Shown here: piece by piece, positions 36,722 through 49,436 of the stretch | Layout: each line of letters starts with the position of its first letter | Numbering within the stretch: position 1 is the stretch's first letter | Source: Spirochaetota bacterium | GTDB lineage: Bacteria > Spirochaetota > UBA4802 > JAFGDQ01 | NCBI GenBank assembly: GCA_043803405.1 | Contig: JAZDKB010000006.1 | Coordinates: 1 to 64,000, forward strand | DNA: 64,000 nucleotides | Reading direction: 5' to 3' | Position numbers and translations under genes: made by a program | The notes under the pieces: generated by a model | What the model saw: the letters and a program-made list of their open reading frames with translations, nothing else | Databases searched by the model: none | Told to the model about the DNA's origin: nothing

Positions 36722-39433
36722 ATGTTTAAAAAATATAAAGGATTCAGTTCAAAAAAGAAAACTCAGGACACGAATGAAGGCGCGCAGAAACCCTTAATAG
36801 AACCTATTGATAAGCCCATAGAGTCAGATCCAATTATTAAAAATAATCTTAAATGGCCGTCCTTTAAATCGGAAACTGAATCGAACGGTGAGCAAAACAA
36901 ATCTACTAAGATTTTTACTGTAAAAAAAAGTTTTTCTTTCCCCGACATCACAAAAAGCTCTTTTGATTTTTCATCTTTTTTAAAAAAGATTCCGCAGTTT
37001 TTTAAAGAAAAAGTACATTCCCACAGACCTGTTTTGCTGGGAGTATTAATCGGATTGGTTCTGGCTGTCTTTTTTATTTTTATAACGGCAATTATCACCG
37101 ACTTTCGAAAGGTGAGGGCGCTCGCGGATTTTCAGCCGAATATCACAACGAATATTTACGATAAGAACGGGCTTCTTGTATCCGAATTGTTTAAACAGAA
37201 AAGAGAAATAGTGGCTCTTTCCAAAATACCGCCGCATCTAATAAATGCCTTTATTGCAATTGAAGACAACGAGTTTTACGATCATTTCGGCATTAACGTA
37301 AAAGGAATCGCAAGGGCATTTTTTGTGAATTTATTTTCCGGTAAGATTAAACAGGGCGGCAGCACTATAACTCAGCAGCTCGCAAAAATACTGCTGACAA
37401 CAAGAGAGCGGAATATTTTCAGGAAAATAAAAGAAGCAGCCATATCCATAATGATCGAAATCATTTACACAAAGAAAGAAATCCTGGGTCTGTACCTTAA
37501 CCAGATCTTTCTGGGACATGGAGTTTACGGCGTAGAGAGCGCTGCCAAGTTCTATTTTAATAAGGATGTGTGGGACCTTGACCTCGCAGAATCGGCTCTG
37601 CTGGCAACGCTGCCTTCGGCGCCGAACAAGCTTTCGCCGATACGGCACACAGAAAGATCAATAGAAAGACACAGAGTCGTGCTCGCGAAAATGGTTGATT
37701 GCGGGTTTACAACAATTCCTGAAGCTGAAAAATCATATCTTGCATTCTGGCCCGAGTATCTTGAATATATCAATGAACTCCCGCCATCTATAACATCATG
37801 GTCGAGTAAGGTAGATAAAGCCCCATGGTTTACCGAATACTTAAGAAGAAAACTTGTAAAACAGTTCGGAGAAGAAGCTGTTTATAGAGACGGACTTGCC
37901 GTATACACTACACTGGATCTGAAAAAGCAGCTGGCAGCTGAGAAATATATGAAGGAAGCGCTCGGAAAACAGGCTACGGTTTCGAGCGGGCTGTCCTTTA
38001 AGAACGAAGATTATATTATAGAGAATTTTTCAGAGATGACGGAGCTTTTCGCGCTGTTGCACGATGTTAATCCGTATTACAAAAAAGGCTCTCTTGAAGT
38101 AAAGCAGGTAAACGATTATTTCCGCACAGAAGTTCTTGATGAACTGGATTCTTTAGGATTTCTTTTCGGGAATAATTATGTTGCAGACACGGTGACATCC
38201 TACAGGGAGAAACAAACAGGGTATAAAAAATCCGAAAAGGTTCAGGGATGTTTAATTTCAATCGATCAGCGGAACGGATACATAGAAGCAATGATTGGCG
38301 GTGCCGAGTTTTCCAGCATCAATCAATTGAACAGAGTTATGCAGTCAAAGCGTCAGGCCGGCTCATCGATTAAAGGTCTTTTATATGCTGCCGCAATAGA
38401 ATCGAAAAAATTTACACCTGCGACTGCTATTCTCGATTCCCCGTATATTTCCCTTGATAAAGAAGGTACGGACTGGATTCCGGATAATTATGATGAAAGA
38501 TATTACGGGCTTGTCCGCTTGCGCCGCGCTCTGGAACTGTCGATTAATGTCATTTCCATCAGGATCGCGGAAGAGTTGGGATGGGATACGGTTTTTGAAT
38601 ATTATACAAAGCTGTTAAAGTTCGATAAAAAAGAAGCAAAGGAGCGTATCCCAAGGGACCTTACCGTTGCAATAGGAACTCTTGATGTTTCACCTTTTGA
38701 ACTCGCAAGGGCTTATGCAATAATTGCAAACGGCGGCAGGGATGTTATACCTTACAGTATAAGATACATTAAAAACAGGAACGGCGAAATAATAGATAAC
38801 ACAGAAGAAGAAACGCAGGCTAATTTAAAGAAGGAGGCCGAGGCAGGCGCCCTTCAGATAATAAAACCTCAGACTGCTCAGATTATGATAAGCATGCTGC
38901 GATCCGTTATGACCTCGGGGACGGGATTATCCGCTGCAATGGGTAGACCGGCTGGCGGGAAAACAGGGACAACAAGCAACTGGAGAGATGCATGGTTTGT
39001 CGGTTTTACTCCGCAGCTGACAACATGTATCTGGGCAGGCTACGATAATCCTGGCCTGTCGCTAGGGCACGGGCAGACCGGCGGCGGTGTAGTTGCCCCG
39101 ATCTGGCGCGAATATATGAAGGATGCTCTTGAAAATGAGCCGTATCTGGAGTTTCCGTATTATGGCGCTGTAATTGCTCAGAAGGTATGCGCGATGTCCG
39201 GCAAGCTTCCTTCTCCGTATTGCAAACAGACAATAGATGAAATTTTTATGGAAGATACGTTGCCCGAAGAAGAATGTACTTTCTGTAAAGATTTAAAATT
39301 TAACATCAATCCGTTTAAAACCGCTCCGAAAGAAAACATCGCAGGGAGTCAGCACGACTCTATAATTGAAAATATTCAGGAGAAGAGCGGGTCATCTGCG
39401 CTGGATAAAGTCGGAAAAGATTTACTGGACTAA
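36722..39433 (+). CDS. Class A penicillin-binding protein (PBP1A family)
   Basis: Transglycosylase EDNEFYDHFG, QGGSTITQQLAK, RKIKE; transpeptidase GSSIK, SIN, KTGT. Confidence 0.93.
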   Translation: MFKKYKGFSSKKKTQDTNEGAQKPLIEPIDKPIESDPIIKNNLKWPSFKSETESNGEQNKSTKIFTVKKSFSFPDITKSSFDFSSFLKKIPQFFKEKVHSHRPVLLGVLIGLVLAVFFIFITAIITDFRKVRALADFQPNITTNIYDKNGLLVSELFKQKREIVALSKIPPHLINAFIAIEDNEFYDHFGINVKGIARAFFVNLFSGKIKQGGSTITQQLAKILLTTRERNIFRKIKEAAISIMIEIIYTKKEILGLYLNQIFLGHGVYGVESAAKFYFNKDVWDLDLAESALLATLPSAPNKLSPIRHTERSIERHRVVLAKMVDCGFTTIPEAEKSYLAFWPEYLEYINELPPSITSWSSKVDKAPWFTEYLRRKLVKQFGEEAVYRDGLAVYTTLDLKKQLAAEKYMKEALGKQATVSSGLSFKNEDYIIENFSEMTELFALLHDVNPYYKKGSLEVKQVNDYFRTEVLDELDSLGFLFGNNYVADTVTSYREKQTGYKKSEKVQGCLISIDQRNGYIEAMIGGAEFSSINQLNRVMQSKRQAGSSIKGLLYAAAIESKKFTPATAILDSPYISLDKEGTDWIPDNYDERYYGLVRLRRALELSINVISIRIAEELGWDTVFEYYTKLLKFDKKEAKERIPRDLTVAIGTLDVSPFELARAYAIIANGGRDVIPYSIRYIKNRNGEIIDNTEEETQANLKKEAEAGALQIIKPQTAQIMISMLRSVMTSGTGLSAAMGRPAGGKTGTTSNWRDAWFVGFTPQLTTCIWAGYDNPGLSLGHGQTGGGVVAPIWREYMKDALENEPYLEFPYYGAVIAQKVCAMSGKLPSPYCKQTIDEIFMEDTLPEEECTFCKDLKFNINPFKTAPKENIAGSQHDSIIENIQEKSGSSALDKVGKDLLD

Positions 39434-40171
39434 ATATTCTTCGAATTCTTTTCTGATGCGCAGCTCTTCATCAATAGGCATCGGATTTGATGACAGATTA
39501 TGATTGGGCGTTCTTTCCAGTTTTATCAATTTGTCGATATATGACGGATTATATGTTAATAGTTCGTAGCCGTTCAGTTTGTTTTTCTTCATAAGCCGGG
39601 TTATGCCAAGAAGATTTTCTTTAGCAGTAATAAATGGAGGAATAAGCGGCACTCTTATAACTATTTTTAAGGAAGATGTGCTTGCCCTGCCAAGATTTTC
39701 GATTATTATAGCGTTGTCCACTCCAGTCAGTACATAGTGTAATTTGGGATCAATTATTTTTAAATCAAAAAGAAGCAGGTCTGTATATTTGATTAACTCT
39801 TTCCCGAAGTCGTTGTAATTAAAGTAACCGCTTGTATCATAAGCTATCGAAATATTTTTTTCTTTCAGTCTTTTCGCGATCTCGCATAAATAAGTTATGT
39901 GCATCAAAGGTTCGCCGCCGGAAAAAGTAACGCCGCCTCCTGACTCATTATAGAAATGATTATCCAGTATGATTATTTCATATAATTCATCGACCGTATA
40001 AGCTCGTACTGTTCCGGATAACTCTCTATAACAGGCTTGCGATTCGGGATTGTGGCACCACGCGCATGTAAGAGGGCACCCCTGCATAAAAACAACAGTG
40101 CGTATTCCGGGCCCGTCGCAGAAAGAACCGCGTACAATATCGAATATTATCGGTGGCTGTTCTGTTTTCAA
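39422..40171 (-). CDS. Glycyl-radical enzyme activating enzyme (radical SAM, no ferredoxin insert)
   Basis: DGPGIRTVVFMQGCPLTCAWCHNPES, GGVTFSGGEP, DTSG, IRVPLIP. Confidence 0.9.
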   Translation of the reverse strand: MKTEQPPIIFDIVRGSFCDGPGIRTVVFMQGCPLTCAWCHNPESQACYRELSGTVRAYTVDELYEIIILDNHFYNESGGGVTFSGGEPLMHITYLCEIAKRLKEKNISIAYDTSGYFNYNDFGKELIKYTDLLLFDLKIIDPKLHYVLTGVDNAIIIENLGRASTSSLKIVIRVPLIPPFITAKENLLGITRLMKKNKLNGYELLTYNPSYIDKLIKLERTPNHNLSSNPMPIDEELRIRKEFEEYLVQ

Positions 40172-40219
40172 TTAACTACAACTTTTATCAAAATTATAAA
40201 TTTATACAAACTATTCACA

Positions 40220-40347
40220 ACAGATCGAAATACATTACAAAATTTACTCCGGAATCAGGCCTTCCTGGTCTGTCTTTCATATTTTCGAAGGTATTGCATC
40301 AGGCCTGAAAGGCGTCCTCATAAATTTTGTAATGTATTTCGATCTGT
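40220..40347. mobile_element. 128-bp MITE-like element with perfect 27-bp terminal inverted repeats
   Basis: acagatcgaaatacattacaaaattta (40220-40246) ... taaattttgtaatgtatttcgatctgt (40321-40347). Confidence 0.7.
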
Positions 40348-40385
40348 AAAATAATAAAATCTAATTTTGAAATGACTTCTAATTA

Positions 40386-40850
40386 TTAAAGAAATCTTAG
40401 CTGAAGATGCTTTGCAATATAACCGAATTTGAATATGTAATTCAGGTTCCCGCTGACATTTACGTTGTTCTCAAGAATAGCGTTCAGCACATCGGGATTG
40501 CCCGAGAAAAGAAAATCCCTGAGCGATTTTGCGTCTTTAAAAATGACTTCTATGTTTTTATCCGGTATTTTTTTTTCGGATAAATGCATAGTGCTGTTTT
40601 TAAAAATTACTCCTGTGTAAACATCTTTTGTCTTGTCTCTGAATACATATTTCGCATCGAAGTTTTCAATATTGCGTCTGAATTTCCTGTCAAAAAGAAA
40701 GACAAGCGACATTGCGCTGAGAAGGATTGAAAGGAAAAGATCGGTTGCATCTTCTTCCATATTCCTTTTTAAACGCCGGATTTCAGTTATTAGCTTAAAT
40801 CCTTTAACCGGATGAATTAAATAATTAAATATTTTTAATAATGTATTCAT
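40386..40850 (-). CDS. SCP2 (sterol-carrier)-like domain protein
   Basis: FRRNIENFDAKYVF..VIFK..IEVIFKD..DVLNAILENNVNVSGNL pattern; start ATG 40850 after GAGGTG. Confidence 0.65.
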   Translation of the reverse strand: MNTLLKIFNYLIHPVKGFKLITEIRRLKRNMEEDATDLFLSILLSAMSLVFLFDRKFRRNIENFDAKYVFRDKTKDVYTGVIFKNSTMHLSEKKIPDKNIEVIFKDAKSLRDFLFSGNPDVLNAILENNVNVSGNLNYIFKFGYIAKHLQLRFL

Positions 40851-40930
40851 TGAACTCACCTCGCACTTTATATTAAACACGGCTGTGTCTGCCGGTTATT
40901 TCCTGAGATGATATATTAAAAATATTCTGT

Positions 40931-43390
40931 TTACGGCAATGGAACCGCTTTCCCGGTTGAAAGATCGTACTGGGTTCTTTTTATCAGTTCGTCTTTCATT
41001 GCATCATTTAAGTCATTGAAGAATGCTGAATATCCCGATACGCGCACAATGAGATCCCTGTACTTATCCGGGTTTTTACGCGCGTTTATAAGATCATTAT
41101 AGGATTGTATGTTATATTGAACCTGCATACCGTTCTTTTGAAAATAAGCTCCGATCATGGAACTGAATTTTTCTTTAAATTCATCCTGCCCGATCATGGC
41201 CGGAGGGGTGTACTTTATATTAAGCGCGTATCCACCCGGTATATTCAGAAATCCCAAACTCCCAATCGCGTTATATGCTGCGGTCAGCGAAGTTGCAGAC
41301 TGCGATGCGGGCGTTATCCCGCTTGAAAATACTTCGTGCGCTGCTCTGCCGCTCGGCAATGCCCACGCTATTTTACCAAGCCCGGCATGATTTGTCATTG
41401 ACCAGAACGCGGGACGGTATTTCCCTCCGCGGTAATTAGTGTATGACTGGTAAAGCCCATATAAAAATGAAATAAGCTCTTTTGAATTTGAAAGAGCAAT
41501 CGGATCTTCGGTGCCGTATTTCGGGGCGGACATCAGCAGTGTCCGGACTAAGCGTCCTTCGGCATCGCTAAAATTATTTTTTACTGCTTTCACTATCTCT
41601 TTCATTGTTGCTGTTTTTAAATTTAACACATATTGTATGGCATTCAGTGAATCACAGATATCCGCGAAACCGATATGAGTAACTCCCGAAGAATTGTATT
41701 TTGCTCCGCCGAATATAAGGTCATGGCCTTTTTCAACAGGGCCTTCAAACAGGCCGGATAAAAGCGGGGTAGGAAGATATTTCTGATATGTTCTGCCAAA
41801 AGCTTCATTAAGCGATATTCCCTGATCAATCAGCCATTCGAGCTGTTTATAGAATGCATCGCGGAATTCGGGATAATTCGTAAAAGCAGACGCGTCCCCG
41901 CTTTCGAAACTGATAAGCTCGTTCCCGGAGATATAAGGACGCCTGCCGTTATACAGGGCAAGGTCCATTGCCGCAGACAGATTTATAAGCAGAGAGGAGG
42001 ACGATGAGTACTCGCGGCCGGCGCTCCCCAGCTCAACGCATCCTATTACAGCATAGTCGCGTGCGTCGCTTTCGGATACTCCCTGGTTCACCAGTGTCCC
42101 TATGTTTGTAATGTCATTATAAAAAGCAGGGATTGCGCGGGTGTTAAGAACAACCTGGCTTACCCTGTCTCTGTATTCCCTGCTGTTCTTTTCAAGATGA
42201 TAGCGCGCGTTTACGTTTGGATCGCGAAGCTTAAGAAGCTCAGTTACACGAAGCATAATATAAGTGAGATCGTTCACCGCGTCTTCGCCATTTCTGTCCA
42301 CGCCGCCGAGCGTTACTGCGGGCACTGAAGCAGCGCCGCCGAACAGTTTTTCCGCCGATTCCGGTACAAGGTTGGTGTTGTCTCCGAATTTGAGCCATAA
42401 ACAGCCGCAAATACTAATTGCTTCTTCAATACTTATTTTATTATCCAGATAATCTTTTTTAAAGAATGGATACAGCAGCTGGTCGACGCGTCCCGGATTA
42501 AGAGCCATGTTTACGTTTTCGGCCAGCACTCCGATGTGGCAAAGCAGGAGCGCGTTTGCCGCCTCGCGGAAATTCCGCGGAGGATTCGCCGGCACATTAT
42601 CGCAAATTCCTGCTATTGAAAGTAAGTTATTTTTCGATCGGGGATCAGAAGCACCTTTTGCTTTTTTGCGGGCTGCTTCTGCCAGGTTCGATGCGTAATT
42701 AATAATACCGCGCAAAGCAATTTGCACAGATAGATAAAAGTTAATTTTATTTTTTTTATCTTCCGAATCTGGAACGCTGAAAAGCATATCTATTTTTTCC
42801 TGCGCTTCTGCAATAATGCCGTTCAGTCCTATAGCCAGCATCTTCTCATAATACGGAGTAGTGTGCGATATAACCGAAGCTTTGCCTGCCAGGAAAAAGT
42901 TTATCTTCTCCAAAAGGGCCATTGCCGGAGGATTAAGTTCTTTTCTCGTCCTTTCAGTAATGCTTTTGTCAATCCAGTACGGATAAACCGAGAAATTAAG
43001 CGTTTCCGCGTCCTTTTCGCTTAAATATTGCGGATTTACTTTTCTTTTGCTTATCGTATCAAGCTCCGGCCATATTGCCAGTCCCATGTAATCAGGATAC
43101 ACAGGCGCGCCGAACGTTTTGGAAGTCGAATTACCAGCTAATAGATTATTATCATGAAAAATTGCTTTTCGGTTTGTAAGATAATGATTTACGGCGCCTG
43201 CCCTCTGTATCTGAACCGGTTCGCTTTCATGATTTTTAATATACTCGGTAACAAGAACAGCTCTTTCAATGCAGACTTCTGTTCTTGCATTTACAAGGTT
43301 TTCCCTGAGCTCTTTTAACAGGGGGATGGTGTCGTAATTATAACCACAAAGGCTTATATCAGACTGAGTCTCTTTAGAAACAATAAGCAT
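40931..43390 (-). CDS. Glycyl radical enzyme (PFL superfamily) of unknown function
   Basis: VCIERA, LLAGN, GRVDQLLYP, Cys loop IGCVE, Gly loop LIVRVSGYS; RBS AAGGAG. Confidence 0.92.
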   Translation of the reverse strand: MLIVSKETQSDISLCGYNYDTIPLLKELRENLVNARTEVCIERAVLVTEYIKNHESEPVQIQRAGAVNHYLTNRKAIFHDNNLLAGNSTSKTFGAPVYPDYMGLAIWPELDTISKRKVNPQYLSEKDAETLNFSVYPYWIDKSITERTRKELNPPAMALLEKINFFLAGKASVISHTTPYYEKMLAIGLNGIIAEAQEKIDMLFSVPDSEDKKNKINFYLSVQIALRGIINYASNLAEAARKKAKGASDPRSKNNLLSIAGICDNVPANPPRNFREAANALLLCHIGVLAENVNMALNPGRVDQLLYPFFKKDYLDNKISIEEAISICGCLWLKFGDNTNLVPESAEKLFGGAASVPAVTLGGVDRNGEDAVNDLTYIMLRVTELLKLRDPNVNARYHLEKNSREYRDRVSQVVLNTRAIPAFYNDITNIGTLVNQGVSESDARDYAVIGCVELGSAGREYSSSSSLLINLSAAMDLALYNGRRPYISGNELISFESGDASAFTNYPEFRDAFYKQLEWLIDQGISLNEAFGRTYQKYLPTPLLSGLFEGPVEKGHDLIFGGAKYNSSGVTHIGFADICDSLNAIQYVLNLKTATMKEIVKAVKNNFSDAEGRLVRTLLMSAPKYGTEDPIALSNSKELISFLYGLYQSYTNYRGGKYRPAFWSMTNHAGLGKIAWALPSGRAAHEVFSSGITPASQSATSLTAAYNAIGSLGFLNIPGGYALNIKYTPPAMIGQDEFKEKFSSMIGAYFQKNGMQVQYNIQSYNDLINARKNPDKYRDLIVRVSGYSAFFNDLNDAMKDELIKRTQYDLSTGKAVPLP

Positions 43391-43641
43391 AATAACTCTC
43401 CTTATAAAATAGATTATAGTTACAGCTTATTTCTGCAGGTAAGATCGTAGACCGGATAACCGGAAATTCAGATAGGCAGGCAAGGGGAGTTTTGCATTTT
43501 TAAAACAGATAAAGATATGCTCTCTGCCCGATTTGAGTGACAGAGAAATTGAATTTCTGATTTACCATTAATAAAACAATGGAATTTAACCTGCAAAAAT
43601 ATTATCTTAAGGATTATATTCTTATATTTTTCGTTTAAGGG

Positions 43642-44901
43642 TTAAATTTTTATCGATTTAATATCTTTTCCGGTTTCATAAACAAATACAACCGGGCCGG
43701 AGGCAATTGAGCTTTTATTCGCTGTAAGCCAGCCGCCGGAATTTAAAAGGGTAATTCTTTTATTATCAAATAAATATGATTTATTGTCATTTGATACAAC
43801 CGGTACATGAGTGTGTCCGAATAAAAATGTGTCCGGTATTCCGGAGACATTTTTTATGCGTCCATCTCTTTGCAGCTGCTCTATTTCAAGTCTGGAAGAT
43901 GTAATATAATCATTGAATCTGTCAATACAGCCTTCATCTTTATTTATTGTAAGATCGGAAATGTAATCCGAATTTCTCATTTTCTTTAATGATTTTATTG
44001 TAATATTAGTGAGGATTTTTTTCAGAATCCAGGAAGTTAAGCCGAATAATTTTGCTATCTTCAGCTCTTTGATGATATAAGGAACAATATTTTTTATGCT
44101 GTTTTTTATCGGGGCATATTTGCCGTCTGTAACAGCCTTTTCTATTTCGAGTGCAAAATCCGTAAGCGGGCCTGCCTGTCCTATTCCTATGGAACCGAGT
44201 TCGCATAACGGGAAATTAACGGCAATAAAATCTTTTATATTAAACGAATCTTTCTTTGCCGTTAAAACTTTGTATAATAGTGAAAGAGCAGACCAGTATG
44301 TTTCCAGGTATTGCCCGTGCGTCATCAGAATTGTTTTTTCTTCGGTAAAAAGATACAAATTCGGGAAAGCCACAAGGAACGGAATGTAATCGGGTGTTCC
44401 GGGCTTATTATCCGGGATCAGGTTATCGAGAAACATACCCCCGTATGCTTCAACGGAATCATCCTGATCTTTTCTGGTCACACCAGCCAGGGTATATTTA
44501 TTAATGGCGTCCTTCCTGTCATCCATAATAAAAGGAACGGACATTTTAAATTTTCTTGCAGGTTTGCCGTTATTTATTTGATTAATTACATTTGATTGAT
44601 GTTCGATCGTATGCCATATATTATAATCATGATTGCCCGGAATGTATACAATGCGTTTTACGGCTTTTGCTTCCTTAATACTCTTGAAAAACCTGTAGCT
44701 GTACTGGTATACATCTTCGTAGTCGTTTATTGCAAAATCCATTATATCGCCGAGCAGTATCAGGCAATCATTGTCCTTGCCCATTATATCAAGCAGTTTG
44801 CCGAGATTCGCTCCGTCCTTTATGCTCCCGTCGGCATTTTTATCGAAAAGCGTGCACTCCGGATCGCCAAGATGCGTGTCAGATATTATCGTGCATTTCA
44901 T
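43642..44901 (-). CDS. Calcineurin-like metallophosphoesterase
   Basis: SDTHLG, LLGDIMD, IPGNHD, THG, FGHTH, NSGGW. Confidence 0.85.
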   Translation of the reverse strand: MKCTIISDTHLGDPECTLFDKNADGSIKDGANLGKLLDIMGKDNDCLILLGDIMDFAINDYEDVYQYSYRFFKSIKEAKAVKRIVYIPGNHDYNIWHTIEHQSNVINQINNGKPARKFKMSVPFIMDDRKDAINKYTLAGVTRKDQDDSVEAYGGMFLDNLIPDNKPGTPDYIPFLVAFPNLYLFTEEKTILMTHGQYLETYWSALSLLYKVLTAKKDSFNIKDFIAVNFPLCELGSIGIGQAGPLTDFALEIEKAVTDGKYAPIKNSIKNIVPYIIKELKIAKLFGLTSWILKKILTNITIKSLKKMRNSDYISDLTINKDEGCIDRFNDYITSSRLEIEQLQRDGRIKNVSGIPDTFLFGHTHVPVVSNDNKSYLFDNKRITLLNSGGWLTANKSSIASGPVVFVYETGKDIKSIKI

Positions 44902-45076: not shown

Positions 45077-45859
45077 TTACTTCAGCAGTGAATCCCAGTT
45101 TACAATGCGGCCGTCAAAAACAGGACCGTCAACGCAGGCTCTTTTAATTCCGGAGATCGTTTCAACCGCGCATCCGAAACATAACCCTATTCCGCAGCCG
45201 AAATAATTTTCAAGCGAGGCTTCTATTGGAGTGTCCGATTGTTTAGCAATGCCGGCAATGGCTTTCATCATTACGGAAGGACCGCATGTATAAATTATAT
45301 CGAATTTATTTTGCTGTAAAATAGCTGCTGCGGCATCTCCTGCTGTTCCTTTTTGCCCTTCGGAACCATTATCCGTATATAAATAAAACATATCCGCTAT
45401 TGCTTTAAAATCATTCTTATTAAAGATGAATTCTTTTGATCTTGCAGCGTAAATATAATGAATTTTATTATTTCCGGTATTTAATGTTCTTGCAAGATAA
45501 TATAACGGCGCATTTCCAACTCCCCCTCCGATCAGCAATACGCTTTTATTCTCTGCGATCGAAAACCCATGGCCAAGCGGACCTATAACATCAAGCAGTG
45601 ACTGCGCTTTAATATCTTTCAGCAGTTTTGTCCCTTTGCCGACTATTCTAAAAATTATTTCAATGGTATTGCTGTTCTGGTTATAAATTGAGAAAGGACG
45701 CCTTAATAAAGGTTCCAGATCGCCGATTTTTATATTCACGAACTGGCCCGGAGCGGAATAATTTTGTTTAATATTAATTTTTAAAAGATAATGATCTTTG
45801 CAGACTTCCAGAGGTTTTTCTGTTACAAGAGCTATGCAGGCTTTAGGATTCGGGTTCAT
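45077..45859 (-). CDS. pyrK: Dihydroorotate dehydrogenase electron transfer subunit
   Basis: PGQFV, LRRPFS, GPLGHGF, GGGVG, CGP, CGIGLCFGC..CVDGPVF. Confidence 0.88.
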   Translation of the reverse strand: MNPNPKACIALVTEKPLEVCKDHYLLKINIKQNYSAPGQFVNIKIGDLEPLLRRPFSIYNQNSNTIEIIFRIVGKGTKLLKDIKAQSLLDVIGPLGHGFSIAENKSVLLIGGGVGNAPLYYLARTLNTGNNKIHYIYAARSKEFIFNKNDFKAIADMFYLYTDNGSEGQKGTAGDAAAAILQQNKFDIIYTCGPSVMMKAIAGIAKQSDTPIEASLENYFGCGIGLCFGCAVETISGIKRACVDGPVFDGRIVNWDSLLK

Positions 45860-46427
45860 CTTTTGTAAATTTGATTGATTTTAGTTCAGTATAAATCGGG
45901 CCTTCTTTTGTTAAGGAAGACGAATACAGCGATAACTTTGTAAATGACGATTGGTATAAAAATAACTCTTTATTCTCGACAAGATATTGCCTCATGTTTT
46001 CACTCAGCTTTTTGCCTTTTCGTATCCTGGCCAGCGTAATATGGGGCGTAAATACATTTTTTTCTTTCTTGAATTTTAAGTCTGTGCCAAATTTTTCAGC
46101 GATCTGTGCCAGCTTATTAATCAGCTGTTCATCGGTTTTAATCCCTGCCCATATAACGTTCGGATTTTTTAAATCAGGGAAAACACCAAGGCCGAACAGC
46201 GTAAATGGGAAGATTTTTTTGTGCCAGGCAGTATTTTCAAAACCCTCTTCGATTTTATTTTGCATCTTTTCGCTGCATTCACCGAAGAATTTTAAGGTAA
46301 TATGATAATTTTCCGGCGATACTATTTTAAGCTCATTATCGAATCTTTTGAGGTAGCCGAAAACATCGTTTAATCGCTCATGTATGGTTTCATTGTTTAA
46401 TGGAAGCGCAATAAAAAGCCTGGGCAT
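45843..46427 (-). CDS. thpR: RNA 2',3'-cyclic phosphodiesterase (2H family)
   Basis: RLFIAL, HITLKF and PHITLAR motifs, SSLTKEGPIY. Confidence 0.9.
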   Translation of the reverse strand: MPRLFIALPLNNETIHERLNDVFGYLKRFDNELKIVSPENYHITLKFFGECSEKMQNKIEEGFENTAWHKKIFPFTLFGLGVFPDLKNPNVIWAGIKTDEQLINKLAQIAEKFGTDLKFKKEKNVFTPHITLARIRKGKKLSENMRQYLVENKELFLYQSSFTKLSLYSSSLTKEGPIYTELKSIKFTKDEPES

Positions 46428-47396: not shown

Positions 47397-49436
47397 TTAT
47401 TTTAATACGATCAAAGCATCAAGTGCAATCAGCCCGTCTTCATAGACCCGGACCGGGTTCAGATCCATTTCCTTTATTTCCGGGTGGCCTGTCATTAAAA
47501 GGCCGATCCTTACAAGCGCTTCTGCTATCCGGCGCTTGTCAACAGCAGGGGAGCCGCGCCATCCGTTAAAGAGCGCTTTCCCTTTCAGCTCGCTTATCAT
47601 TTCCTCTGCGTCAAATTGAGTCAGAGGAGCAAGACGCATGCTCACATCGTCAAGCGCTTCTGCTGTTACCCCGCCCAGGCCTAGCAGAACAGCAGGGCCG
47701 AAGCTTGCATCATTAATTGCTCCTATTATGATCTCAAGCCCGGGCTTTGCGGTTTCTTCTATAAGATATTTCTTTTTGCTTCCTGTTTTGATTTTATCGA
47801 TTTGTTTAAGCGCAGCCTCAAGCTGCTTTTCTGTTTTAACTCCGAGAATAACACCGCCTACCTCGGTTTTATGCTTTATTGTTTTATCCAGCACTTTAAC
47901 AACGCACGGTTTCCCAAGCTTTGCAAAGGCTTTTTTTGCTTTATCATGGCTTGCGCAGATGATCCGTTGCGGTGTGGTTATGCCTGTCCTGTCCAGAATA
48001 TCCAGCGCTTCCGCTTCGTCAGGGATTTCGGTCAAAGGAGCGATATCGATTTTGTCTGTAGCTACGTCCGCTCTTCTGCTTTTGCGATAAGCTGCCTTTG
48101 AGTCATCTACCAGGGCGCGAATTGCCTTTGCCGTCCTGTCGGGGGAAGGAAATGACGGAATATTATTTTCCGCGAGCGCCTTCTGCGTTGGATGTATATG
48201 CTCGGGAAAGCCGCCTGTACCTAGAATTAAAGGCTGCTTAATATCTTTAAATTGCTTAAAAAGGCTGACCGGATCAATTATTGCAGGCTCGTGAAGGGCG
48301 AATACGCTTAGAATATCTATTGCCGGATCATCCGCCATTGCCCTCATCACATTCGGGAATGTGTCGCCCGGACGCGTGGTATCAACCGGGTTCCTTATGA
48401 ATGATATCGGCGGCAGCTCCTTCTTTATCTTTTCAATTGTCGAAGGCTGCAGCTCCGGGATGAGGACGCCCTTGCTTCTAAGATAATCAGCAATCACAAG
48501 TCCGGGCCCTGCCTGGCCTGTCAGCAGCCCCACGCCCGGGTTTTCTTTAGGCTGAATACGCACGCGCGACAACAGATCTGCAGCGTCTATAATGTCGTCG
48601 CTCGATTCCGCCATAACCGCGCCTGCCTGAATTAAAGCTGCAATCTTTAATCTGTACGAACCAATCAGGTTTCCAGTGTGCGACGACGCGAATTCGGAAA
48701 TATCGGACTTGCCTATGGTTAAAAACAGGACCGGTTTCTTTTCAGCGGTTTTTTTTACAATATCATACAAACGCCTTCCCTCTTTTACTCCCTCAAGATA
48801 CAGAACAATTGCTTTTGTGTTATCATCATCCGCCAGGTATTCGACCACGTCCGAAACATTCACAACAGCTCCGTTACCGATTCCGGTAACAAGGCTTACT
48901 CCGAGATTCTGGGTCTGGATGAGCGCAACCAGGGTAAAGCTCATTGCGCCGCTCTGGGAAATAAGTCCGATGTTCCCCTGGCGCACATCGCCTATCCACG
49001 GATTGAAGTTGGCCGTTACGCCAAAGCGCGGATTTGCGAATCCGGCTGTGTTTGGGCCAAGAAGGCGTATGCCGTATTTGCGGCAAACGGAAACCAGTTC
49101 ATTCTGCATTCTTTCTCCTTCTCCGCCGGTTTCCGCAAAACCGCCGCCAATAATGAGAGCTGCTCCTGCGCCTGCTTCCCCTGCTTCCTTTAAAGCATCA
49201 ACGCATCTTTGTGCCGGAATAGTAAGGATGACGAGATCTATGGGATTGCCGATCGATTTAAGATCCGGATACGCCTTAAAGCTGAGGATGGAATCCGCTT
49301 TAGGATTAATAGGGTACAGCTTTCCGGGGAATGCCCTCAAGGCATACACCATTTGATATCCGGCCTTTGTTTCGTCAGCCGATGCGCCTACAACTGCGAT
49401 GGATTTAGGTTTATATAAGCTGTCCAAAGAATGCAT
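47397..49436 (-). CDS. Acyl-CoA synthetase (NDP-forming) / acetate-CoA ligase family, fused alpha-beta
   Basis: PKSIAVVGAS, GGFAETG, LLGPN, SQSG, ASSHTG phospho-His, HKTEVGGV, EMDLNP. Confidence 0.9.
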   Translation of the reverse strand: MHSLDSLYKPKSIAVVGASADETKAGYQMVYALRAFPGKLYPINPKADSILSFKAYPDLKSIGNPIDLVILTIPAQRCVDALKEAGEAGAGAALIIGGGFAETGGEGERMQNELVSVCRKYGIRLLGPNTAGFANPRFGVTANFNPWIGDVRQGNIGLISQSGAMSFTLVALIQTQNLGVSLVTGIGNGAVVNVSDVVEYLADDDNTKAIVLYLEGVKEGRRLYDIVKKTAEKKPVLFLTIGKSDISEFASSHTGNLIGSYRLKIAALIQAGAVMAESSDDIIDAADLLSRVRIQPKENPGVGLLTGQAGPGLVIADYLRSKGVLIPELQPSTIEKIKKELPPISFIRNPVDTTRPGDTFPNVMRAMADDPAIDILSVFALHEPAIIDPVSLFKQFKDIKQPLILGTGGFPEHIHPTQKALAENNIPSFPSPDRTAKAIRALVDDSKAAYRKSRRADVATDKIDIAPLTEIPDEAEALDILDRTGITTPQRIICASHDKAKKAFAKLGKPCVVKVLDKTIKHKTEVGGVILGVKTEKQLEAALKQIDKIKTGSKKKYLIEETAKPGLEIIIGAINDASFGPAVLLGLGGVTAEALDDVSMRLAPLTQFDAEEMISELKGKALFNGWRGSPAVDKRRIAEALVRIGLLMTGHPEIKEMDLNPVRVYEDGLIALDALIVLK

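Follow-up and report, generated by a model that had tools for sequence, protein, structure and literature searches.

Among glycyl radical enzymes (GREs), eliminases are described for small polar substrates alone, and the only small subunits described are Fe-S or rubredoxin types, in the sections of a 2026 review that cover them (PMC13450708); its sections 4.2, 4.3, 5.1, 5.4, 5.6 and 7 mention neither an SCP2 subunit nor a lipid substrate, and the word 'sterol' is absent from its available text. We analyzed a four-gene cassette of a Spirochaetota bacterium (assembly GCA_043803405.1, contig JAZDKB010000006.1, positions 1 to 64,000 of the forward strand); this whole stretch of 64,000 nucleotides is called the window. 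The cassette encodes a calcineurin-like metallophosphoesterase, a GRE, a small protein with a predicted SCP2 fold and a GRE activating enzyme (Table 1). From locus comparison and predicted models, it is a real and widespread GRE system, as yet uncharacterised, whose predicted subunit is of a new kind. No paper describing the SCP2-GRE pairing was found in a literature search in which subscription papers were largely absent.

The top structural matches of the GRE model (template modelling score 0.91; root-mean-square deviation, rmsd, 1.8-2.1) were glycerol dehydratase (GD) of C. butyricum (1r8w) and the GRE 1,2-propanediol dehydratase (PD; 5i2g). They share with the window GRE a Cys-X-Glu (CXE) loop, the equivalent of GD His164 and an adjacent activase gene, but the identity is 29 %, they fall in a separate tree branch, GD residues His281, Ser282, Tyr339, Asp447 and Tyr640 are replaced in the window GRE, and an SCP2 partner is absent from GD and PD loci. 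A glycerol or propanediol dehydratase was ruled out by the separate branch and these five replaced pocket residues. The best sequence match among solved structures (E 9e-119) was Archaeoglobus fulgidus PFL2/PflD (2f3o), the function of which is debated. It shares the GCVE loop, the ISH motif and the Met/Thr pair at 665-666, but is 31 % identical, has Asp at the 465 position and Tyr at the 663 position, and lies outside the tree sample. Other GREs with a similar Cys-loop tail (L028, L029, L200 and L201) fall outside the SCP2-bearing clade, with no SCP2 nearby.

Small partners are described for BSS, MASS and HPAD. The likeness lies in a small partner bound near the substrate channel (predicted here) and, for BSS and MASS, in hydrophobic substrates; the small subunits of these enzymes are iron proteins that resemble HiPIP or rubredoxin (PMC13450708, in the part on these subunits), whereas the partner in the window has a cysteine-free SCP2 fold. 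This difference, with an identity of 22-23 % to BSS and MASS, ruled out an X-succinate synthase. On the side of the partner, UbiJ, UbiT and the C-terminal SCP2 domain of alkylsulfatase have the same fold (Z 11.9 and 11.3) and place an SCP2 module, sometimes fused, on enzymes handling hydrophobic substrates. They are 8-20 % identical to the window protein, serve other enzymes and other chemistry, and do not involve a GRE. The UbiJ SCP2 domain binds hydrophobic intermediates, and UbiT has been proposed to do likewise for O2-independent enzymes, according to the part of 10.1101/587956 that treats them.

The window GRE belongs to a branch, here branch A, whose sister, branch B, is 32-39 % identical to it. 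SCP2 pairing was counted only where the DNA downstream of the GRE was 600 nt or longer, and 15, 1, 0 and 3 short-flank loci were dropped from the four sets in the order given below. An SCP2 gene or domain, downstream of the GRE or fused to its C-terminus, was present at 58 of 59 branch-A loci drawn from the window, metagenomes and a small number of genomes, and at 18/18 branch-A loci from a sample of 401 Desulfobacterota genomes. It was N-terminal at all 39 branch-B loci and was found at none of 15 other GRE loci. Overall, 115 of 116 loci of the SCP2 clade with enough flank showed the pairing, a count inflated by near-duplicate loci (e.g. L057/L058/L087) and made with an SCP2 profile built from the same loci. 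A single-protein scan of genome contigs gave only 4 loci. The SCP2 protein is encoded by a separate downstream gene in the window, and C-terminal fusions were seen at locus L081 and in three of the best 120 of 959 homologues (P0062, P0064 and P0100). The pairing is close to obligatory, and the neighbourhood conservation examined after the preliminary description, standalone or fused, was borne out in two fusion orientations. Protein P0323 combines DUF6765, GRE pieces and SCP2 in a single frame; it is probably an assembly chimera and was left out of account.

The small protein did not match Pfam PF02036; among 35 homologues, 12 gave PF02036 matches at E up to 1, the best being weak (7.6e-4). 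By its predicted model (mean predicted local distance difference test score, pLDDT, 79.9), it is an SCP2-fold protein. The top Foldseek rows were SCP2 domains, and all ten fold-search rows at Z of at least 8 were SCP2 proteins or an SCP2-bearing alkylsulfatase. VIA-align gave Z 11.9 against UbiJ-SCP2 (rmsd 3.3, 115 aligned) and Z 11.8 against human SCP2 (rmsd 2.5, 109 aligned), and the atlas position was beside SCP2 clusters. The family profile comprised 436 representatives at 50 % clustering. PDB sequence matches of this profile, with FtsH as a candidate, were weak (E 0.05 or worse) and were set aside in favour of the fold searches. The SCP2-like partner proposed in the preliminary description thus stands, both in the fold of the predicted model and in its co-occurrence with the GRE.

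Co-folding of the GRE with the SCP2-fold protein scored 0.87, compared with 0.01 for the best of three controls, which supports binding; 116 of 157 solved complexes and 2 of 215 mismatched pairs attained this mark. The runs shared at least 82 % of contacts, with a partner pLDDT of at least 66. In the predicted interface, the C-terminal helix of the SCP2-fold protein (134-151) meets GRE residues 104-112, 132-150, 161-164 and 343-349. Trp107, the top contact, occurs in 50/53 branch-A and 21/21 branch-B sequences and in 0/15 other GREs, and conservation within the SCP2 family is 0.69 for the interface columns versus 0.57 for the remainder. In BSS, a cap helix together with alpha-8' makes up the substrate channel, and the beta subunit plugs this channel (PMC13450708, section 4.3; PMC8473560, in its part on BSS). 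By alignment to these channel helices, GRE 161-164 would fall on the cap helix, and 343-349 on the short helix that precedes beta-3. The models predict that the SCP2-fold protein binds the GRE, probably at the substrate-channel helices. We know of no solved GRE-SCP2 complex, and none was among the solved structures returned by fold searches with the GRE and SCP2 models.

Membership of the GRE in the PFL-like group is given by its barrel domain PF02901, PF01228, a single active-site Cys451 in GCVELGSAGREYSSSSSLLINL (GCVE) with Glu453, Gly786 in RVSGY and a cognate TIGR02494 activase. The single-Cys loop agrees with the preliminary description, and pyruvate formate-lyase (PFL), with its Cys-Cys pair, was ruled out by it and by an NCBIfam score of 86.1 against a cut-off of 994.2 bits. 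The earlier use of GCVE as an eliminase hallmark held in part: it is found in CutC but is not exclusive, as HPAD also has Cys-X-Glu, and the CXE pair is common to CutC, HPAD and IAD in the account of PMC13450708 that treats these enzymes. The GRE scored under every single-function NCBIfam cut-off, with 208-288 bits for decarboxylase models and 373-449 bits for dehydratase models. CutC was ruled out by 396.5 versus 1050 bits, a separate tree branch and the lack of microcompartment (BMC) genes among the scanned neighbours. HypD was ruled out by 448.9 versus 1100 bits and by Met295 and Val356 at the positions of Asp278 and Phe340, which are taken as HypD diagnostics in the relevant part of PMC7077986; proC was not among the scanned neighbours. 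For the sulfonate GREs (IslA/IseG, HpsG and HpfG), the scores were 420.6 (HpsG) and 373.3 against 1000 bits, and Ser172 stands at the position of IslA Arg189, which corresponds to HypD Arg156 (PMC8473560, in its comparison of the two) and aligns to Ser172 through that residue; these were ruled out as well.

The predicted GRE model had a pLDDT of 93, with Foldseek identities to solved GREs of 22-31 %; over all comparisons, identity to any solved GRE was at most about 33 %. A homologue search returned 959 proteins at E of 0.001 or lower among 8000 candidates; among the matches listed (the best 120 of 959), identity was 54-100 % and the sources were uncultured or little-studied anaerobes; one branch-A homologue is assigned to Desulfoluna and another to Syntrophus gentianae. 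Trees of 55 and 84 sequences were drawn with quick IQ-TREE runs (LG+G4, midpoint root, support only by the Shimodaira-Hasegawa-like approximate likelihood ratio test, SH-aLRT). Branches A and B together were split from annotated GD, PD, HypD, CutC, YbiW and PflD homologues with SH-aLRT 100, and in the 84-row tree the 69 SCP2-bearing rows fell on one side of a branch and the 15 others opposite (SH-aLRT 100). Annotated plasmid homologues stand in for the assayed proteins as references in these trees; IslA, HpsG, HpyG/HpzG, HplG, BSS, the decarboxylases and A. fulgidus PFL2 were compared by pairwise or profile score. Within this sample, no clustering with a characterised family was observed, and the uncharacterised status claimed for the GRE is supported by its separate branch and its scores below all single-function cut-offs.

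The distribution of the enzyme is patchy. One same-genus and two same-family genomes gave no match at E 1e-100, a branch-A enzyme was present in only 1 other of 301 genomes of the phylum, and in its own genome (3.98 Mb) the GRE was the sole PFL-like match. The GRE gene has a GC content of 44 %, against a genome value of 39 % and a range of 34-39 % in the remaining cassette genes; this difference, together with the patchy distribution, may reflect transfer. In many genomes of the window's order there is a branch-B enzyme that has SCP2 fused to its N-terminus, in most cases together with a TetR regulator (L104-L123); at five related loci among these, GMC and GFO/IDH/MocA oxidoreductases, YdjM and a HAD hydrolase are also present. 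Outside the SCP2 clade, a GRE and an activase were found on Moraxella and Acinetobacter plasmids (L125, Moraxella osloensis plasmid, and hits H2-H4). Moraxella and Acinetobacter are aerobes.

In the active site, GD His164, Cys433 and Glu435 are kept as His176, Cys451 and Glu453, and Glu435 and His164 are the base and the acid of the elimination proposed in section 5.6 of PMC13450708. Cys451 and Glu453 were found in 53/53 branch-A sequences and His176 in 52/53. The GRE therefore has the eliminase-class combination of CXE with a His at the GD His164 position, CXE not being diagnostic by itself. Replacements were observed at residues that we take to line the GD pocket (His281, Ser282, Tyr339, Asp447, Tyr640 and Tyr336): His281 by Met295, Ser282 by Ala296, Tyr336 by Ala353, Tyr339 by Val356, Asp447 by Ser465 and Tyr640 by Trp663, all conserved throughout branch A. 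As judged from the sequence alignment, these smaller or apolar residues point to a roomier, more apolar pocket. Lys170, Asn294, Asp337, Trp663, Met665 and His668 are common to both branches.

The phosphoesterase of the window has the five calcineurin-like motifs DxH, GDxxD, GNHD, HG and GHxH, with metal ligands D8/H10, D52, N90/H91, H195 and H363/H365, and the motifs are invariant in 11 homologues, several of which carry an automatic LpxH-type name. A PDB search returned no close solved relative (best E 0.0076). Its family adjoins 12 of 74 branch-A loci. With motif detectors that gave 3 matches in the whole 3.98-Mb genome, a phosphoesterase was found within 5 kb at 18 of 31 metagenome loci and 14 of 16 genome loci of branch A that had ample flanks, and at 0/37 branch-B loci. 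The slot, often less than 100 nt upstream of the GRE, is occupied by the window family, other calcineurin-like subfamilies, DUF6765 or a Zn-dependent phospholipase C (directly upstream of the GRE at L072/L075). On the 84-row tree, a phosphoesterase was nearby in 34/50 branch-A rows and 0/19 branch-B rows, and the family switched at least 7 times (32 single-family rows). The neighbourhood conservation considered for the phosphoesterase is thus recurrent in branch A, but it is not universal, does not extend to branch B and involves families that also occur away from GREs. Near some branch-B loci, outside the detector counts, Pfam matched a 5'-nucleotidase, an EEP-family protein and HAD/YdjM genes.

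Examples of DUF6765 (PF20551) are L043:991-2076, L233, L236 and L231. The family occurred in 65/401 genomes of the sample, and GRE-system genes stood beside 9 of the 30 loci cut out. Conserved residues were His6, Asp35, His79, His135, Asp139, His143, His197 and Asp205, a His/Asp pattern that presumably resembles the three-zinc site of phospholipase C/P1 nuclease. No informative PDB, Pfam or atlas match was found for this family, and no paper mentioning it was found in a literature search in which subscription papers were largely absent. Patatin or phospholipase A2 neighbours were seen at 3/21 DUF6765 loci away from GREs.

Other genes occur near the GREs. A gene for aldehyde:ferredoxin oxidoreductase (AFOR) lies between the SCP2 and activase genes at L086:6432-8489, L090 and L091:9812-12037, and alpha/beta hydrolases and a GMC oxidoreductase are sporadic neighbours. 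Branch-B neighbours include TetR regulators, acyl-CoA ligases, crotonase, SDRs and Zn-alcohol dehydrogenases. All of these neighbours fit lipid catabolism, though they are sporadic; the window's own genome has 1 AFOR match and 8 acyl-CoA dehydrogenase matches. At L181 and L192 of branch B, two Zn-alcohol dehydrogenases and a split transketolase border the SCP2-GRE, a hint that the substrate is polyhydroxylated; L181 has its SCP2 and GRE portions in separate overlapping frames.

Two further families were observed. The 'c4' family, a unit of about 310 aa that is often doubled, stands beside branch-A GREs (L057, L061, L062, L066, L077, L078, L103, L163-L175 and L180), at 13 loci in one count and at 11/16 well-flanked genome loci in another, and it is fused to an SCP2 domain in P0308. 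No informative Pfam, PDB or atlas match was found for it; it may resemble lipocalin-like GXWXG barrels. The 'c6' family consists of one or two paralogous hydrophobic membrane proteins of about 190 aa with the motif GWPAWE, adjoining the GRE (L040, L043, L047, L048, L050, L059, L067, L088 and L097), and a Pfam scan matched it to no known family. Neither was found beside the window cassette, and a search of the window's own genome gave one weak c6 match only.

We propose that the cassette is an anaerobic lipid-breakdown module, in which removal of a head group is followed by radical 1,2-elimination of a lipid alcohol to an aldehyde; in our judgement this proposal is about evenly poised between right and wrong. 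The phosphoesterase would remove the phosphate or phospho-head group, freeing a hydroxyl on the lipid backbone, and the SCP2-fold carrier subunit on the GRE would present the lipid at the channel. By analogy with glycerol dehydratase, the activase would install the Gly786 radical, the Cys451 thiyl radical would abstract hydrogen from the carbinol carbon, Glu453 would deprotonate the hydroxyl and His176 would protonate the leaving group on the next carbon (water, alcohol or amine). The aldehyde product could then be oxidised and passed to beta-oxidation. As ester lipids need no radical step, glycerol ethers, long-chain diols and sphingoid bases are logical candidates, and the likeliest substrates would be glycerol-ether or long-chain 1,2-diol lipids, which are not finished by lipases. 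A more specific form of this proposal, which we consider improbable, is an ether-lipid lyase that needs no oxygen: a phospholipase-C-like step would first release the primary hydroxyl, SCP2 would then feed the GRE an alkyl- or dialkylglycerol (a bacterial ether lipid or archaeol-type core), and radical 1,2-elimination would expel the ether-linked alcohol or the adjacent hydroxyl. No GRE ether lyase was found in a search of the ether-lipid literature, in which subscription papers were largely absent.

Several observations weigh against the lipid-breakdown proposal. The pairing counts overstate independence because of the shared-locus profile and the near-duplicates, and the three AFOR loci are close relatives. 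By the detectors used, a phosphoesterase was absent from 13 of the 31 well-flanked metagenome loci and from all branch-B loci. The window phosphoesterase family occurred in 5/401 genomes of the Desulfobacterota sample (8 matches) with 0 GREs within about 1.5 kb, and 21 of the 30 DUF6765 loci had no GRE, SCP2 or activase within about 1.5 kb; since these families occur away from GREs, the phosphoesterases do not serve the GRE exclusively. Nucleotides and sugar phosphates are further substrates of calcineurin-like enzymes, and a profile comparison of DUF6765 for phospholipase-C likeness was not significant (probability 0.3). Both the phosphoesterase and the DUF6765 proteins begin at the catalytic motif, without a leader; such a start at the first catalytic motif suggests that the phosphoesterase is cytoplasmic and that the lipid could come from the cell itself. 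The invariant Lys170, Asn294, Asp337 and His668 could instead serve a substrate of polar or anionic nature, and CXE is also present among decarboxylase and isomerase-type references.

These polar residues, conserved in both branches, would suit another arrangement, in which the SCP2-fold protein would carry no lipid and would have a structural or gating role, as a small subunit of the BSS beta or gamma kind, and the GRE would act on a small, polar substrate released by the phosphoesterase (for example a polyol, a sugar or a nucleoside). The small subunits of known GREs help with solubility and block the channel (PMC13450708, section 4.2). The predicted interface also takes up the most conserved helix of SCP2, and the fold search placed SCP2-like domains in Eis-type acetyltransferases as well. 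We consider a structural subunit unlikely, however, as the pocket positions have shifted to small or apolar residues, the neighbours include Zn-phospholipase C, alpha/beta hydrolases and a GMC oxidoreductase, and recurring PTS, sugar-kinase or microcompartment genes were not seen among the scanned branch-A neighbours.

If the substrate is a lipid, the chemistry may differ from that proposed. The GRE could eliminate the C-N bond of a sphingoid base after a sphingomyelinase-like step, or decarboxylate or isomerise a hydroxy fatty acid; sphingomyelinases include calcineurin-like enzymes, CXE is shared by CutC, HPAD and IAD, and the loss of the Asp447 equivalent alters the leaving-group site. This appears distinctly unlikely, given that no ceramidase family was found among the scanned neighbours, the decarboxylase models scored much lower than the dehydratase models and His176 matches the acid His164 of GD.

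Whether the phosphoesterase belongs to the system is a separate question. It would be a passenger, and the system would consist of the GRE, the SCP2-fold protein and the activase only, if weight is given to its absence from branch B and from 16/50 branch-A rows, to the occurrence of its family without a GRE and to the 251-nt gap that precedes the GRE gene in the window. We find this quite doubtful: unrelated phosphoesterase families repeatedly fill the same slot, often within 100 nt of the GRE, at a frequency far over the own-genome background given by the 3 detector matches. The leaderless phosphoesterase and DUF6765 proteins, the biosynthetic roles of the SCP2 accessory proteins UbiJ and UbiT and the small membrane protein pair ('c6') beside some loci would fit a module for remodelling or making membrane lipids of the cell itself instead of degrading outside lipids. 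We consider this very unlikely, given the patchy distribution described above and the AFOR, acyl-CoA ligase and dehydrogenase neighbours, which point to catabolism.

The coordinates and the Pfam and NCBIfam matches confirmed the cassette as four co-oriented, intact genes (39422-44901), as had been described, with intergenic gaps of 251, 80 and 214 nt in gene order 5' to 3'. An alternative GTG start for the SCP2-fold protein at 40880, given by the open reading frame finder, would yield 164 aa.

Table 1 Genes of the cassette and two same-strand upstream genes in the window
Feature	Position	Strand	Remarks
Calcineurin-like metallophosphoesterase	44901-43642	-	419 aa from ATG; PF00149, E 1.4e-9
GRE (glycyl radical enzyme)	43390-40931	-	819 aa; PF02901 and PF01228
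SCP2-fold protein (predicted)	40850-40386	-	154 aa, cysteine-free; fold searches, atlas, co-fold
GRE activating enzyme (radical SAM)	40171-39422	-	249 aa; TIGR02494, 204.9 bits (cut-off 174.35); PF04055
2H (LigT-like) phosphoesterase	45843-46427	-	not recurrent at homologous loci
ADP-forming acyl-CoA ligase	47397-49436	-	not recurrent at homologous loci

The activase is of a short form, without the 2x[4Fe-4S] ferredoxin insertion; CxxCxxCxxxC is absent after the radical SAM motif. The insertion was absent in 10 of 63 activases compared, mostly in the window GRE's own sub-branch, and 48/63 had two ferredoxin motifs. The activase start is TTG, with no clear ribosome-binding site seen upstream, and its stop overlaps the 3' end of the convergent PBP1A gene by 12 nt. 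The flanks of the cassette encode a penicillin-binding protein, a dihydroorotate-dehydrogenase electron-transfer subunit, a 2H phosphoesterase and an acyl-CoA ligase. Among 10 proteins scanned (35.7-51.6 kb), none was a microcompartment, P5C-reductase or sulfonate protein, in agreement with the preliminary description. A promoter and terminator scan gave 24 promoter-like sites versus 17 expected, and nothing interpretable.

A GRE clade with a subunit of lipid-carrier fold, as predicted here, would be a new GRE subunit type whatever the substrate, and the window cassette is its compact four-gene version, suited to reconstitution. If the system acts on the polar ends of lipids, GRE chemistry would be extended to membrane lipids, with a testable anaerobic route for lipase-resistant lipids. 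If the ether-lipid lyase were true, it would provide an enzyme for ether-lipid turnover in anoxic sediments in addition to a new class of GRE subunit.

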